UHGV virus genome: UHGV-1553573
Reading direction: 5' to 3' (one strand)
Origin: a virus
DNA: 10,080 nucleotides
The notes beneath the pieces were generated by a model. The model was not told the DNA's origin, did not search any database, and worked only from the letters and a program-made list of their open reading frames with translations. How positions within the stretch are numbered: position 1 is the stretch's first letter; every line of letters starts with the position of its first letter. Positions 1,170 to 10,080 of this stretch are shown here, piece by piece. The translations under genes were made by a program, and so were the position numbers.

Positions 1170-1260
1170 GATTTACCCTTGAGGTAATTAAAAACCACAT
1201 AAGACACGAAATCAATAGATTTTAGAATATTTATTACCCAACAGGTAATTATCAAGACGT
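1170..1260 (-). promoter_or_regulatory. Candidate promoter/operator region for the 825..1169 gene, with two TTACC-N5-GGTAA palindromes
   Basis: Perfect palindromes at 1173-1187 (TTACC CTTGA GGTAA) and 1234-1248 (TTACC CAACA GGTAA); on the minus strand TTGATA (plus 1250-1255) precedes a 17-nt spacer that is the 1234-1248 palindrome. The -10 hexamer is ambiguous. Confidence 0.4.
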
Positions 1261-1285: not shown

Positions 1286-2068
1286 TTACTTGATAAATCC
1301 TGCCGCCTTTCCCCGCCTGTATTCCTCCATCAGCCACTGCGCCGGTGTTATTCCCCCAAGGGTGGCGGCGTTAGGCATGCACCCGAAACTTCGCCCTGGT
1401 GGATGGTAAACGTCTCTCCCTGTGTCCGGAGGTGTACTCATGGGCTCTCGCTTTGCCTGTATGCCGATCACCGGATCGGGTATCTGCTGTCCGGAAGCTA
1501 CCTTTTTCGCCCAATCATCGAGCAGCCTGCGCGCGTGTTTCTCAACCTCAATCTCGCTAAGCTGGCGCTGATACATTGCACGGCGGGTATCACATACGAC
1601 CCAGTACATAACCGGATGTCGCCACGGGAATCTTTCGGGACCACCAGGATATAAACTTTTTTCCTTGCTGTACCGGTGAAACTCCGCCATCACATCGTCA
1701 ATGGTGACGCCAAGAACCATCTTGCTGTCTTTGCACCACTTGATGAATTGCCCTGGCGACGGCCAGAACGGAGATTCACTGGCGCGGGCGTGGCGCATAC
1801 CAGCGTTAACCTGTTCCATTGTTGTGATCCCATTCTCCAGAAACGCAAGCATCCATTGTTTTCGAAATTCGTTTAGCTTTCCTTGCTCGCTGATAGCAGC
1901 GATGCTGCCTGGAAATGCAGCCTGTAACTGGACAAACATTTCGTTGAAAATTCTTGCAACCTGCTCCTTCTTTGCCCTTTCATCGTCAGCAGAAGCAACC
2001 GCCGTCGAGTGGTCATGCCCACCACGAAAGCGATCGTACTCATTAAGAAGTTCTGGAGTTGATTTCAT
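1286..2068 (-). CDS. Lambda P-like replication protein (DnaB helicase loader family)
   Basis: Translation contains WMLAFLENGITTMEQVNAGMR and FWPSPGQFIKWC, which I recall as closely matching lambda P; it sits immediately downstream of and overlapping the O-like gene. Start moved from the track's 2080 to the ATG at 2066-2068 (MKSTPELL), which has GAGGTG 5-8 nt upstream. Confidence 0.8.
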   Translation of the reverse strand: MKSTPELLNEYDRFRGGHDHSTAVASADDERAKKEQVARIFNEMFVQLQAAFPGSIAAISEQGKLNEFRKQWMLAFLENGITTMEQVNAGMRHARASESPFWPSPGQFIKWCKDSKMVLGVTIDDVMAEFHRYSKEKSLYPGGPERFPWRHPVMYWVVCDTRRAMYQRQLSEIEVEKHARRLLDDWAKKVASGQQIPDPVIGIQAKREPMSTPPDTGRDVYHPPGRSFGCMPNAATLGGITPAQWLMEEYRRGKAAGFIK

Positions 2069-2894
2069 CCCACACCTCATCTATCCAGTCAGTGTTATGC
2101 CAGTCAAGGCTCTTTCTGACTTCACCTGATTTCTGTCTACAGAACTGGATGCGCCTTGCCAGCTTCTGCTCCCACTGTGCCTGATGGTATGCCTTACCCT
2201 CAGCCATCCAGTAAATTCTGAACTCTGCAAGTTCCTGTGCCGTTGGCAGACTGTCCAGGTAGATTCCCTGCAATGAGCTTTTCCGAAGAAAGTCATCTGA
2301 TGGCTGCCATTGTTCATGCATGACAAATTTGCCTAATTGCCCTGGCCCACCAGGAGGAACAAAGTTATTCATCACGGCGTTGTTTGCGCCGGGGTCATGA
2401 GGCACAGAATCCCCGGTTTTTGTCCTGCTCTCCCTCTCTTGGTTAAATGACTGGTTATATGACTGGTTCTGGATCCCGTTTTTGGGATCATTCAACATCC
2501 CGTTTTTGGGATCATTCAACATCCCGTTTTTGGGTATATTCCCGTTTTCGGGAACATTACCGTTTTCGGGAACATTACCGTTTTCGGGTTCATTACACCC
2601 TTCTAGGTCGCCTTTAATGTTCCCGTTTTTGGTTATATTAAGAGAGAAAACCCGCACTCTTTTTGTCGCTCCCTTTCTCTCTCCGGTATCTGAAATAAGC
2701 CCCATTTTCATGAGCGATATAAGTCCGGCCTGCACGGTTTTTTTATTCAGGCAAGTGTCTTTAACGAGGCGTTCTATGCTGGGGTAGCAGAGGTTATATT
2801 CATCGGCTCTGTCAGCCATCGAGAGCAGTATGAGCTTTAATGATGAGCTACCTGGATCTGTCTCCCAGGCCCAATCTGTTGCATGTCTGCTCAT
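2043..2894 (-). CDS. Lambda O-like replication initiator (iteron-binding origin protein)
   Basis: 283-aa ORF with GGAG 9 nt upstream of the ATG at 2892-2894; its central part is encoded by the iteron array and gives the peptide repeats NGNVPENGNVPENGNIPKNGMLNDPKNGMLNDPKNG; followed by the P-like gene with a 26-nt overlap, as in lambdoid O-P pairs. Confidence 0.8.
   Translation of the reverse strand: MSRHATDWAWETDPGSSSLKLILLSMADRADEYNLCYPSIERLVKDTCLNKKTVQAGLISLMKMGLISDTGERKGATKRVRVFSLNITKNGNIKGDLEGCNEPENGNVPENGNVPENGNIPKNGMLNDPKNGMLNDPKNGIQNQSYNQSFNQERESRTKTGDSVPHDPGANNAVMNNFVPPGGPGQLGKFVMHEQWQPSDDFLRKSSLQGIYLDSLPTAQELAEFRIYWMAEGKAYHQAQWEQKLARRIQFCRQKSGEVRKSLDWHNTDWIDEVWDEINSRTS
2472..2640. 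repeat. Replication origin iterons inside the O-like gene
   Basis: About seven direct repeats with core CCCGTTTT(T)GGG: three at 24-bp spacing (2472, 2497, 2521) with palindromic arms GATCCC/GGGATC, three at 18-19-bp spacing (2541, 2560, 2578) with arms TTCCCG/CGGGAA, and one more at 2621-2640. On the O-coding strand they read TCCCAAAAACGGGA, resembling the lambda ori iteron as I recall it. A flanking ATGACTGGTT direct repeat lies at 2447-2456 and 2459-2468. Confidence 0.75.
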
Positions 2895-2909: not shown

Positions 2910-3110
2910 TCAGCTTGAGTGTTGTGGGGAGGAATTAATCATGATCTGCTTAATCTCTGCCCTGATGCGACGGTTTGATTCCATGGTGCACTCAACACAG
3001 TGTCCGTTGTAAACCCAGCGTTCACTGTCATGTCCATGCTTACATGGTTTTCCGGTGTAGTAGCGTTTAAGTCCGCGCTTTGCGGCATCAATACGTGTAA
3101 TGATTTCCAT
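2910..3110 (-). CDS. Small putative zinc-binding protein (about 66 aa)
   Basis: Translation MEIITRIDAAKRGLKRYYTGKPCKHGHDSERWVYNGHCVEC has a C-x-H-G-H ... H-C-x-x-C cluster; AGGG about 7 nt upstream of the ATG at 3108-3110; stop 12 nt before the O-like start. The track's longer start (3173) would leave no room for a promoter after the upstream terminator, so the internal start is preferred. Confidence 0.45.
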   Translation of the reverse strand: MEIITRIDAAKRGLKRYYTGKPCKHGHDSERWVYNGHCVECTMESNRRIRAEIKQIMINSSPQHSS

Positions 3111-3206
3111 GGTAAGCCCTGTTATTAGTATTGGGGTTACGGTCATTTTGTGCTGACACAAAAAAAAGATCAACCAGATTTGGTTTTTTATTACCTTTGA
3201 GGTACG

Positions 3207-3238
3207 AATAGATATGAAAAGACCGCCGGGTGGCGGTC
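3207..3238 (-). terminator. Intrinsic terminator downstream of the Cro-like gene
   Basis: 7-bp GC-rich stem GACCGCC / GGCGGTC (3221-3238, loop 3228-3231) followed on the minus strand by TTTTCATATCTATT; lies 23 nt past the stop at 3261-3263. Confidence 0.55.
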
Positions 3239-3260
3239 TACAGAGGGTTGTAGCTGGATA

Positions 3261-3491
3261 TCATGAGTAGAAGAAGTATGCCAGTTCTGCTTTTGAGCGC
3301 AGCCATTGTCTTGTTTTACAGGCTTTAAAAAGCCCATTCATCAATACCTTACCTGGCATTTTGCGCTTACCTGTTAAGTGAGTCTGGATATAGTGACTCG
3401 TCGTTCCGGCTTCCTGTGCGAAGGCTTCACGCTCATCCGGAGTAAGTGCAAGCCAGTGCTTTTTGAAATCGAAATGTCCGTTATCGCTCAT
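3261..3491 (-). CDS. Cro/YdaS-like small HTH DNA-binding protein (76 aa)
   Basis: ORF track entry; the segment FAQEAGTTSHYIQTHLTGKRKMP resembles the Cro/YdaS-type helix-turn-helix; transcribed divergently from the repressor-like gene and upstream of the O/P genes, i.e. the cro position. Confidence 0.6.
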   Translation of the reverse strand: MSDNGHFDFKKHWLALTPDEREAFAQEAGTTSHYIQTHLTGKRKMPGKVLMNGLFKACKTRQWLRSKAELAYFFYS

Positions 3492-3645
3492 AGCTATTGC
3501 CTGATATTTATTTCAGATAATAAATATTCACCCATAAGGTAACAAAAATCAAGGATAGTTACCTATGGGGTGCATTTACCTGTTGGGTAATATTGCTTTA
3601 AATTGAATCATCTACTGATTCATATATGAGGCGATTTTCCAGAAA
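3492..3645. promoter_or_regulatory. Divergent promoter/operator region between the Cro-like and repressor-like genes (OR-like)
   Basis: Three clustered palindromes of the TTACC-N5-GGTAA family at 3528-3542 (TCACC CATAA GGTAA), 3559-3573 (TTACC TATGG GGTGC, degenerate) and 3576-3590 (TTACC TGTTG GGTAA, perfect); a perfect 9-bp AT-rich inverted repeat at 3504-3512/3519-3527; AT-rich hexamers usable as -10/-35 on both strands. Confidence 0.6.
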
Positions 3646-4230
3646 ATGAAAAGTATCCAGGACGTCCGCAGGCAAAATCTCAACGACTTGATCGACCGTG
3701 AATTCAATGGTGTTCAGACGCGGATGGCAGAAAAACTTGGAACTCAGGCAAATCTGGTAAACCGCTGGGCTCTTGGCAAGAAGGTTATCGGCGACCAGGT
3801 TGCACGAAAAATTGAAGCTGCCGCCAATAAACCCCGTAACTGGCTTGATATCGATCGCTCGCTTTCTCAGGAAGGTTTTCAGCCTGTCGGCCCAAGCGAC
3901 ATTGGTCAGCTGGCGGCTCACAACCTGGAACGCTGGATGAGCGAAAGCCGCGACCTTTCAACGCAGGGAAAACTTCACCGCGCATCCGGCGTCGCCCAGG
4001 TGACAATCAGTCGCCTGTTAAACAATGAGGTCAGCGTTTCCATTTCCACCCTGGAGAATGTTGCATCCGCATTCGGGCGTCACGGCTATGAATTACTGAT
4101 TCACCCGCACGACCCTGCGACCATCAACTATGACCGCTCGCGCTACGCATTGTTACCCGAAACCGAGAAAGCAAAGATCGAAAGTTACATTGAATTTGTC
4201 ATCAACCAGAACGAAAAAAACAAACAATAA
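3646..4230 (+). CDS. Tandem helix-turn-helix (XRE-type) repressor-like protein, 194 aa, with no peptidase domain
   Basis: Two HTH-like segments: QTRMAEKLGTQANLVNRWALGKK near the N-terminus and ASGVAQVTISRLLNNEVSVSISTLENVASAFG in the second half. No S24-peptidase-like C-terminal domain is apparent. Sits in the cI position; weak or absent Shine-Dalgarno before the ATG at 3646. Confidence 0.7.
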   Translation: MKSIQDVRRQNLNDLIDREFNGVQTRMAEKLGTQANLVNRWALGKKVIGDQVARKIEAAANKPRNWLDIDRSLSQEGFQPVGPSDIGQLAAHNLERWMSESRDLSTQGKLHRASGVAQVTISRLLNNEVSVSISTLENVASAFGRHGYELLIHPHDPATINYDRSRYALLPETEKAKIESYIEFVINQNEKNKQ

Positions 4231-4250: not shown

Positions 4251-4277
4251 AAGCCGCCTTCTGGCGGCTTTTTTATT
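4251..4277 (+). terminator. Rho-independent terminator after the repressor-like gene
   Basis: 8-bp stem AAGCCGCC / GGCGGCTT (4251-4258 and 4263-4270, loop TTCT) followed by TTTTATT; 21 nt after the stop codon. Confidence 0.7.
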
Positions 4278-4287
4278 GCCTATACTA

Positions 4288-4364
4288 TTACCTAATGGGT
4301 AATTTTTTTAACTCATATCTATTGACATCAAACCAAATACGCATAATTATTACCTCAACGGTAA
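4288..4364 (+). promoter_or_regulatory. Strong rightward promoter with two flanking operator palindromes (OL/PL-like)
   Basis: Perfect -35 TTGACA at 4322-4327, 15-16 nt spacer, then ATAATT/TAATTA at 4343-4349; perfect palindromes at 4288-4302 (TTACC TAATG GGTAA) upstream and 4350-4364 (TTACC TCAAC GGTAA) over the predicted start site. Confidence 0.6.
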
Positions 4365-8578: not shown

Positions 8579-9835
8579 TTATTTATTACTGTCTTCCATC
8601 CACTTCTCAAACTTCGACGGGGAGAACGGAATCAGATCCGTATGCTCCCCGTTAATCCAGGAATCAATCATATCGGCCCACTGCTGCAACATGTAGGCGC
8701 GCTGTCTGGCGTATTCCGCTTTGTTATATACGGCGCGCACACCTTTCTGCTCGTGTGCCAGAGCCTTTTCAATCCAGTCTGAAGGATAACCAGCCTCATG
8801 CAACAATGTACTGGCTGTACGGCGCATATCATGTACAGTAAAATCCTGAATATGCTCACCATCTTCATTTATTATTTTCACCGTTCTGTCGATCAGAGAG
8901 TTCAGCGCGGCATTAGATAATGGCTTCCGGAAATTGTAACGACCAGGAACCAGATATTCACTTCCACCAGCGCACATCTGCAACCCGACTAATATATCCT
9001 GTGCCTGTTTAGGCAGGTAAATAACGTGCGCCCGACTTCCCTTCATGCGGTCTGAAGGAATTGTCCATGTCCATTTTTTAAAATCTATTTCATCCCACGT
9101 TGCATTGGTGAATTCTCCCTTACGAACCATGGTGATAAGCACCAGCTTTAAAGCCATTTTCATAGTGCCCATAGCACCAATGGCATCCAGCGTGCGGAAG
9201 AACAGGCCAATTTCTTCTGGTGTCAGTGTTCGCTCTCGTGGTTTAAATATGGCGATAGACGAAGGTTTAATGTCAGCCGCAGGATTAAACAAACCATGAC
9301 CACGGTCATTGGCGTGACGGTATACGCTGCTGATGATCTCCCTGGCCTGTACTGCTGTTGCCCGACCACCGCGTTCGACAATCCGGTCACACAAATCACG
9401 AACCATTGATGTGGTAATTTCAGCCATCATTTTGTTGCCAAGAACCGGAAGTATGTCACGGTCGATCACCGCCTGCTTCATTGCGCGGGTACTGTCAGCC
9501 AGGATGACGTGTTTCATATAACTGTCGGTATGTACCGCAAACGTCTCGGCACCACGAATCTTTTTAATACCGTCACGTTTAGCCGCAGCCGGTGACTGGC
9601 CTGCTTTAAGCAGCTTCTTTGCAGCAATCAGTTCTTCTCGCGCTTCTGCCAGGCTGATACCGTCACGCCCATACTGCCCGATTACCAGTGTTTCGCGGCG
9701 ACCGTTGATACGGTAGTCATAGCGAAACGAGACCGTGCCTGACGTAAGCACAGCTACATACAGCCCGTCACGATCGGAGACCTTGTACAGTTTGTCCTGC
9801 GGCTTGAGGTTTTTTAATTTTGTATCGGTAAGCAC
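8579..9835 (-). CDS. int: P4-type tyrosine integrase, 418 aa
   Basis: N-terminus LTDTKLKNLKPQDKLYKVSDRDGLYVAV is typical of P4-like integrase arm domains; C-terminal HDMRRT ... ALAHEQKGVRAVYNKAEY fits the H-x-x-R ... Y catalytic region. GTG start at 9833-9835 with GGGTGA upstream; convergent with the phosphatase gene, 2 bp apart. Confidence 0.85.
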   Translation of the reverse strand: MLTDTKLKNLKPQDKLYKVSDRDGLYVAVLTSGTVSFRYDYRINGRRETLVIGQYGRDGISLAEAREELIAAKKLLKAGQSPAAAKRDGIKKIRGAETFAVHTDSYMKHVILADSTRAMKQAVIDRDILPVLGNKMMAEITTSMVRDLCDRIVERGGRATAVQAREIISSVYRHANDRGHGLFNPAADIKPSSIAIFKPRERTLTPEEIGLFFRTLDAIGAMGTMKMALKLVLITMVRKGEFTNATWDEIDFKKWTWTIPSDRMKGSRAHVIYLPKQAQDILVGLQMCAGGSEYLVPGRYNFRKPLSNAALNSLIDRTVKIINEDGEHIQDFTVHDMRRTASTLLHEAGYPSDWIEKALAHEQKGVRAVYNKAEYARQRAYMLQQWADMIDSWINGEHTDLIPFSPSKFEKWMEDSNK

Positions 9836-9948
9836 AATTCACCCGTATAGAAACCATTTTCATGACGGTATGAGAGTATACCTTTAAGGTAATACCGTCA
9901 CCTGTACCGACGAAAAATATGGTGTAGAGTGAATAGAAATGAATACAT
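9836..9948 (-). promoter_or_regulatory. Integrase upstream region: candidate int promoter, operator-like palindrome and nested inverted repeats (possible att-proximal sequence)
   Basis: On the minus strand TATACT (plus 9875-9880) is a near-consensus -10; ATACC TTTAA GGTAA at 9878-9892 is a one-mismatch member of the operator family; a 9-bp inverted repeat TGACGGTAT / ATACCGTCA (9863-9871 and 9892-9900) brackets it. Confidence 0.35.
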
Positions 9949-9979: not shown

Positions 9980-10027
9980 TTAAATTAGTATCTGAATAGG
10001 AATGAGTTGCTATGAGTTAGCTGTTAA

Positions 10028-10080
10028 TCATTCCCACTCAATGGTAGCTGGCGGCTTGCCGCTGATGTCATACACCACGC
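10028..10080 (-). CDS. 3' end of a probable chromosomal gene (last 16 codons only)
   Basis: Minus-strand frame reads VVYDISGKPPATIEWE then stop (TGA at plus 10028-10030), followed 50 nt downstream by the terminator. Too short to identify. Confidence 0.25.
   Translation of the reverse strand, partial: VVYDISGKPPATIEWE

Follow-up and report, generated by a model that had tools for sequence, protein, structure and literature searches.

An immunity repressor of phiV10/epsilon15-like Escherichia coli prophages and its probable control by a Rep/Ant switch of the SPC32H type

The closest described counterpart of the locus analyzed here is the Rep/Ant switch of Salmonella phage SPC32H. According to papers on this switch, SPC32H Rep is organized as an N-terminal DNA-binding domain, a middle dimerization domain, and a C-terminal domain that serves both in tetramerization and in binding of the antirepressor Ant. 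DNA is bound by the Rep tetramer and weakly by the dimer, and the operator palindrome is read by a pair of DNA-binding domains drawn from different dimers. The same papers describe Ant as a tetramer that takes the Rep tetramer apart by binding to two Rep dimers. A review of Salmonella systems places Ant synthesis after the self-cleavage of LexA and has the repressor inactivated through protein contact.

Related logic is found elsewhere. The Gifsy and Fels-2 antirepressors and Tum of coliphage 186 are outlined as small LexA-controlled proteins that inactivate a non-cleavable repressor. Ant is said to have been described by Kim and Ryu in 2013 as structurally distinct from Tum and from the Gifsy antirepressors. 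The Rco/Rap system of Bacillus pLS20, with the p53 TetDloop motif, is like Rep in its N-terminal helix-turn-helix (HTH), its C-terminal strand-helix tetramerization motif, and relief by a protein partner; Rep differs from Rco in having an extra middle dimerization domain.

The window, by which we mean the whole stretch of 10,080 nt that was analyzed, was found to be 97-99% identical in DNA sequence to phiV10-like (Uetakevirus) phages and to E. coli prophages, with 98-99% for the best match to the whole window. It represents the early region of an E. coli prophage that is of the phiV10/epsilon15-like type (Uetakevirus) and whose integration site is the guaA 3' end. The stretch that includes rep and the cro-position gene is present in 540 of 5426 complete E. 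coli genomes, and the accessory gene set of the window is somewhat unlike those of phiV10 and vB_EcoP_ZX5. An Rfam scan of the window gave no RNA family. The features of the window are collected in Table 1.

Table 1. Coordinates of the features of the window (position 1 is its first nucleotide)
Feature	Position	Strand	Detail
Second promoter module of PL layout	1173-1248	-	Operators 1234-1248 and 1173-1187 around CTATTGATT-17-TTTAAT; ahead of the DUF1064 gene
Lambda-P-family replication gene	1286-2080	-	ORF list and profile matches
DnaT-like initiator gene	2043-2894	-	
Intrinsic terminator after the cro-like gene	3220-3239	-	Followed by operator-like site TTACCTTTGAGGTAC at 3191-3205
Cro-position gene (76 aa)	3261-3491	-	ORF list
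Predicted sigma-70 promoter of the cro-like gene	3517-3545	-	TTGTTA-17-TATTAT; consensus match only
Operator O1	3528-3542		TCACCCATAAGGTAA; 1 mismatch; within the spacer of the leftward promoter predicted for cro
Operator O2	3559-3573		TTACCTATGGGGTGC; 2 mismatches
Operator O3	3576-3590		TTACCTGTTGGGTAA; perfect; rep side
rep (194-aa immunity repressor)	3646-4230	+	Starts MKSIQD; phiV10 p40, vB_EcoP_ZX5 ORF21; orthologue of SPC32H Rep
Rep residues 1-70	3646-3855	+	Basic HTH, probable DNA-binding domain, with helices at 24-31 and 35-43; role from homologue
Rep residues 85-151	3898-4098	+	HTH_3-like five-helix domain, corresponding to the SPC32H middle dimerization domain (alignment, model)
Rep residues 152-194	4099-4227	+	Aligns with the SPC32H C-terminal tetramerization/Ant-binding domain (CAD/TetDloop)
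Intrinsic terminator after rep	4251-4270	+	
PL-like module	4288-4364	+	Operators 4288-4302 and 4350-4364; promoter TTGACA-17-AATTAT at 4322-4350; operator centers 62 bp apart
Plus-strand genes besides rep		+	Two small conserved ORFs, PD-(D/E)XK exonuclease, RecT/Bet recombinase, AlpA-type regulator, methyltransferase, phosphatase
Tyrosine integrase gene	8579-9835	-	
Operator-like site upstream of the integrase gene	9878-9892		Site at the same position in phiV10 and SPC32H
Attachment core	10025-10041		attgagtgggaatgatt; then the guaA 3' end

An earlier note on this DNA, made from the letters alone, had claimed a lambda-like divergent immunity layout, and this was borne out, with both ORFs located as listed in Table 1, on opposite strands, and three operators between them. 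As in lambda CI/Cro, the repressor and cro genes diverge around three operators, a separate leftward early promoter is controlled by operators, and the repressor gene lacks a usable Shine-Dalgarno sequence. Unlike lambda CI, Rep has no S24 domain and no self-cleavage, and by analogy with SPC32H it would oligomerize through an HTH-like domain together with a p53-like tetramerization motif. A further difference from lambda is that the operator-like sites of phiV10 and SPC32H extend to the promoter regions of the late and lysis genes, of int, and of ant.

The identity of Rep was evaluated by sequence and structure comparison. It was found that the protein is 100% identical to p40 of phiV10 and to ORF21 of vB_EcoP_ZX5, with no protein difference among them. 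In a phmmer search of PDB sequences, Rep residues 1-190 matched chain A of 5D50, named 'Repressor', with an E-value of 4e-42, and the C-terminal Rep fragment 5D4Z was matched in the PDB sequence search with an E-value of 4e-20; these entries are the Rep-Ant and Rep structures of Salmonella phage SPC32H. The Foldseek comparison of the Rep model also ranked 5D50 and 5D4Z at the top, followed by XRE-family HTH proteins, with a TM-score of 0.78 normalized to the 5D4Z chain over 100 aligned columns. Identity to SPC32H Rep was 42% overall (BLASTP), with 54% for the N-terminal domain and 38% for the remainder, and the domain roles given below for the window Rep, being transferred from SPC32H across this distance, are probable ones. 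What the two systems share is full-length homology of Rep, the order of its domains, the order of the genes, and the sequence and positions of the operators.

The public records point the same way. In the phiV10 record, p40 has long stood as a putative repressor, for which 'two helix-turn-helix motifs' and a resemblance to the repressor of epsilon15 are noted; the homologue gp38 of epsilon15 carries the record label 'repressor'. When ORF21 of ZX5 was overexpressed, free phage was abolished, and the transcripts of holin and endolysin fell by about 99.97-99.99% (Li et al. 2022). Rep is the immunity repressor of phiV10/epsilon15-like E. coli prophages and the orthologue of SPC32H Rep. The locus is therefore already known, as a described repressor in an ordinary switch, and it is not new; it carries little weight as a discovery, given that the repressor is in public phage records, that an identical copy has been found active, and that crystal structures and a described mechanism exist for a homologue. 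Its value lies in annotation, because about 10% of the complete E. coli genomes (the 540 of 5426 noted above) carry rep under the name 'helix-turn-helix domain-containing protein' and Ant as 'hypothetical protein'. A reading of rep as part of a toxin-antitoxin pair was considered on the basis of weak HigA and VapB profile matches and of one phage record that uses the name 'VapI'; it was rejected because the HigA and VapB scores were far below the cut-offs.

The domain make-up of Rep was then compared with that of the homologue. Pfam gave an HTH_3 match at residues 106-147, with an E-value of 1.2e-9 (above the cut-off), and a YdaS_toxin match of HTH type at residues 21-61, with an E-value of 3e-4 (below the cut-off). 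The AlphaFold model, built with 33 sequences and having a pLDDT of 76, shows two helical domains, at residues 4-59 and 85-151, between which residues 72-83 form a disordered linker; a further helical segment is C-terminal, and the strand of the tetramerization motif is not formed in this monomer model. Two HTH-like modules, as first read from the sequence, are thus present in Rep, with the N-terminal one giving the weaker profile match. The part after them had been called a short tail, and this description did not hold, as the segment aligns instead with the C-terminal tetramerization and Ant-binding domain of SPC32H Rep. Residues Y162, L170, and F184 in it are invariant across the Rep family, and all three modules of SPC32H Rep align with the window Rep without large gaps.

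Profile searches also agreed with the proposal that Rep has no autocleavage domain of the S24/LexA type. There was no peptidase or other sensor domain in Rep by Pfam (S24 followed to an E-value of 1), and NCBIfam and PHROGs gave HTH-type matches only; among the homologues, 86 of 86 have no Pfam family on record other than HTH families. Rep in this respect differs from CI/LexA-type repressors, having no S24 match to an E-value of 1 and a C-terminus that aligns with the oligomerization domains of SPC32H Rep. Because it has no S24 domain, Rep should be unable to cleave itself. Inactivation by proteolysis, either by RecA-stimulated self-cleavage through an unrecognized site or by a dedicated protease in the manner of DdrO/IrrE, appears extremely unlikely: DdrO was among the distant fold matches of Rep in Foldseek, but S24 and other peptidase domains were found neither in Rep nor in its homologues, and a gene for a COG2856-type protease was seen neither in the window nor in the phiV10 annotation. 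In addition, SPC32H Rep is said to have been reported by Kim and Ryu in 2013 to stay uncleaved during the SOS response, which we count against proteolysis as well.

We infer by analogy with SPC32H that the N-terminal HTH, and not the middle domain, is the part of the window Rep that reads DNA. The N-terminal HTH contains the motif NLVNRW, of which N36, R40, and W41 are invariant across the family, and both this motif and the TTACC half-site are conserved between phiV10 and SPC32H. The earlier note had raised a different arrangement, in which a single Rep chain would place both of its HTH units on one TTACC-N5-GGTAA palindrome as a monomer. The XRE-type HTH fold is real in both segments according to Pfam, AlphaFold, and Foldseek, and DNA contact by the second HTH would be compatible with the sequence alone. 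Nevertheless, the monomer idea is not supported. The N-terminal domain has a pI of about 10 and is basic, whereas the protein after the linker, at about 6.2, is near neutral. The helix motif of the N-terminal HTH and the half-site have both been conserved between proteins that are only 42% identical, and the homologue assigns other roles, being tetrameric on DNA with its middle domain used for dimerization. Furthermore, the symmetric palindrome fits two identical domains, since its half-sites are identical inverted copies. Binding of one chain to one palindrome is therefore considered very improbable, and reading of each palindrome by two N-terminal domains is preferred.

The operators were located by searching the window for TTACC-N5-GGTAA with at most one mismatch. 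Eight sites were obtained, relative to 0.14 expected, and all eight are within the non-coding 12% of the window. At the position of O2, SPC32H and BUCT711 have a perfect palindrome, whereas the window site is degenerate; SPC32H has two perfect sites between rep and cro, 17 bp apart. The spacings between centers, 31 bp for O1-O2 and 17 bp for O2-O3, are kept in four phages, including Tyrion, SPC32H, and BUCT711. Outside the region between rep and cro, two promoters are each flanked by a pair of operators 61-62 bp apart, and the 62-bp pairs at PL and at the DUF1064 operon are both present in phiV10 and SPC32H. This geometry would suit one tetramer whose two pairs of DNA-binding domains clamp the promoter, and, going by the spacing, a single Rep tetramer may span a 62-bp pair. 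As a side observation, operator-like sites were seen near almost every promoter region, including upstream of ant.

The antirepressor was sought in the window and in related phages. The window has no exact LexA box, and its three matches with one mismatch, compared with 3.15 expected, are at the chance level; for this reason the antirepressor is taken to be encoded outside the window. In phiV10, p24 (85 aa) matched chain E of 5D50, named 'Anti-repressor protein', with an E-value of 2.9e-46 and 88% identity, and it is divergent from the tail fiber gene. A perfect CTGT-N8-ACAG LexA box precedes the start codon of ant by 21 nt in SPC32H, in phiV10, and in E. coli AREA_486, so that the distance from box to start codon is the same in the Salmonella and E. 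coli systems. AREA_486 carries the closest full prophage, and its Ant is 98% identical to phiV10 p24. In the prophage map, ant adjoins the tailspike gene and lies outside the window, at a distance of about 25 kb. Ant was found in 35 of the 36 phage records that have a full-length Rep homologue, and the ant region is present in 529 of the 5426 complete E. coli genomes, close to the count for the rep locus. Going by these sequence comparisons, the prophage of this window probably also carries ant. An antirepressor had been listed among the possible routes of derepression, and this route is the supported one, in agreement with the SPC32H mechanism and with the occurrence of Ant and its LexA box in phages that have an identical Rep. 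A microcin that was classed among DNA-damaging bacteriocins by the authors of that work gave a 21- to 47-fold induction of prophages of the phiV10 species.

The E. coli relatives differ from SPC32H in having a Bro-N gene added downstream of ant (ORF4 in ZX5, p23 in phiV10). Li et al. (2022), whose phage has an identical Rep, regarded ORF4, the Bro-N protein, as having antirepressor activity and did not mention SPC32H; overexpression of ORF4 decreased the prophage titer about 1000-fold and rep transcripts by 75%. In AREA_486, residues 157-228 of the Bro-N protein (236 aa) are 44% identical to nearly the whole of Ant, with an E-value of 3e-16, and this protein could bind Rep as Ant does because of its Ant-like C-terminal segment. 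Such a segment may be behind the result of Li et al. (2022), which leaves room for two antirepressors. However, it appears unlikely that the Bro-N protein, and not the small Ant, is the physiological inducer: SPC32H has no Bro-N gene at this place although its switch is described as working via Ant, the phiV10 Bro-N protein retains only the first 29 or so residues of the Ant-like segment, and the LexA box precedes the small ant, with an annotated terminator between ant and the Bro-N gene in phiV10. Induction through the small Ant and a role for the Bro-N protein are compatible with each other.

Taken together, we consider it highly probable that a Rep/Ant switch of the SPC32H type explains the immunity locus of the window. 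By analogy with SPC32H, the TTACC half-sites would be recognized by the N-terminal HTH domains of Rep, dimers would form through the middle HTH-like domain, and the C-terminal segment would build the tetramer, and one such tetramer would therefore have two pairs of DNA-binding domains on offer. Judging from where the sites lie, Rep pairs would occupy the three operators between rep and cro as well as the 62-bp operator pairs at two promoters, the PL-like one and that of the DUF1064 operon, and this occupancy would shut off lytic transcription. DNA damage would inactivate host LexA and release ant transcription, followed by the binding of Ant to the C-terminal part of Rep, which would break the DNA-binding tetramer and free the operators. 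The 76-aa Cro-position protein would presumably then occupy the shared operators. In the genomes that carry the locus, rep and ant can now be named, and the prophages are predicted to be induced in the SOS response through LexA and Ant.

The gene for the 76-aa protein, which is predicted to be of the HTH type, was examined with the same tools. The protein matched PHROG 35, 'transcriptional repressor', with an E-value of 5.6e-13. It had no Pfam match to an E-value of 1, whether to YdaS_toxin (PF15943) or to any other Cro-family profile, searches of NCBIfam and of PDB sequences gave nothing, and its homologues have no Pfam domain on record, the family being annotated as 'hypothetical'. The structure model is a five-helix bundle with a pLDDT of 87, for which the best PDB match was the N-terminal domain of YdaS (8co2; TM-score 0.60-0.62, rmsd 2.1-2.4 Å, E-value about 0.8), followed by the DNA-binding domains of the 434 and P22 c2 repressors (TM-score about 0.6, weak E-values). 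The label 'Cro/YdaS-like' that had been given to this protein is thus reasonable at the fold level only, where the 8co2 match comes with a weak E-value, and it finds no counterpart at the profile level.

The absence of a Shine-Dalgarno sequence at rep, which had been seen in the sequence, was confirmed, as there is no Shine-Dalgarno-like pairing within 13 nt upstream of the ATG. The sole GAGG before the start codon ends 14 nt upstream. This shortfall is common to the relatives, such an element being absent in SPC32H and BUCT711, and Tyrion has a weak AAGAG. A scan from O3 to the ATG gave no convincing sigma-70 promoter for rep, and the parallel drawn earlier with the leaderless lambda cI transcript is conjectural for this gene. 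Translational coupling to a mini-ORF of 7 codons (3626-3649), the stop codon of which overlaps the rep ATG, was considered and dropped because the mini-ORF is not conserved in SPC32H or BUCT711.

The distribution of operator-like sites beyond the early region was also compared between phages. In phiV10 and SPC32H, such sites are present in most of the intergenic regions that bear promoters, namely those of the terminase, the late operon, the lysis genes, int, and the ant-tailspike pair. Going by the positions of these sites, Rep may be a genome-wide silencer that acts beyond the two early promoters, which we regard as a tentative and rather doubtful proposal. One of the sites is located 76 nt upstream of the ant ATG. 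This placement would put ant under the control of both LexA and Rep, and the resulting double-negative loop of Rep and Ant would make induction irreversible.

The region preceding ant, the gene of the small antirepressor, is conserved among the Salmonella phage SPC32H, phiV10 and the E. coli AREA_486 prophage (coordinates in the table below), and in all three the ant ATG is preceded by a LexA box at a distance of 21 nt and, farther upstream, at 76 nt, by an operator-like palindrome of the Rep type. Because these two conserved elements precede the gene, the sequences suggest that ant is under dual control by LexA and the repressor Rep, and therefore that Rep and Ant would form a double-negative loop.

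The identity of Ant between phiV10 (18305-18562) and SPC32H was 88%, whereas that of Rep (window 3646-4230) relative to SPC32H Rep was only 42%, and 38% in the part containing the Ant-binding domain. Therefore, Uetakeviruses of E. coli and of Salmonella might be capable of cross-induction. Among the E. coli RefSeq genome matches listed, the rep orthologue carries only the label "helix-turn-helix domain-containing protein", and "hypothetical protein" is the annotation given to the Ant orthologue; one phage record names rep "VapI antidote".

A gene downstream of ant encodes a Bro-N protein, the C-terminal segment of which, in the AREA_486 prophage, is 44% identical to almost the complete small Ant (E 3e-16); in the phiV10 protein, the Ant-like segment is reduced to its first ~29 residues. 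Antirepressor activity has been observed for ORF4, the Bro-N protein of vB_EcoP_ZX5 (Li et al. 2022), and the Ant-like segment may be a reason for this activity.

The immunity region was not the sole location of TTACC-N5-GGTAA sites in the window and in the whole genomes of phiV10 and SPC32H. In these two genomes, sites recur at corresponding positions close to int and the terminase gene, the late and DUF1064 operons, the lysis cassette and the ant-tailspike region. Pairs of sites, 61-62 bp apart, flank two promoters on both sides.

Coordinates of the features described in this part
Feature	Location	Strand	Remarks
ant control region	phiV10 18213-18285; AREA_486 9209-9281; SPC32H 19937-20133		
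Bro-N protein gene	AREA_486 10706-11416; phiV10 (p23) 18875-19459		downstream of ant
TTACC-N5-GGTAA sites beyond immunity region	window 1173-1248, 3191-3205, 4288-4364, 9878-9892		
Tandem DNA repeats	window 2440-2596		within DnaT-like replication initiator gene
phiV10 p42/epsilon15 p40 orthologue	window 2910-3173	-	PHROG 1081, function unknown; next after cro terminator
Mini-ORF ATGAGGCGATTTTCCAGAAAATGA	window 3626-3649		seven codons; stop overlaps rep start (ATGA)
Attachment core attgagtgggaatgatt	window 10025-10041	-	prophage end

The tandem repeats, which have periods of 12, 24 and 18 bp and are present in 2.4-4.1 copies, also code for the NGNVPE and KNGMLNDP peptide repeats of the DnaT-like initiator and are probably origin iterons like those of lambda O. 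The product of the p42 orthologue has a Cys/His-rich stretch, CKHGHDSERWVYNGHCVEC, and its gene holds the position occupied in lambda by cII. The mini-ORF at the start of rep was not conserved in SPC32H or BUCT711 and is therefore probably fortuitous. The attachment core has been reported to be the attP of phiV10, epsilon15 and ZX5, and beyond it lies the 3′ end of host guaA.
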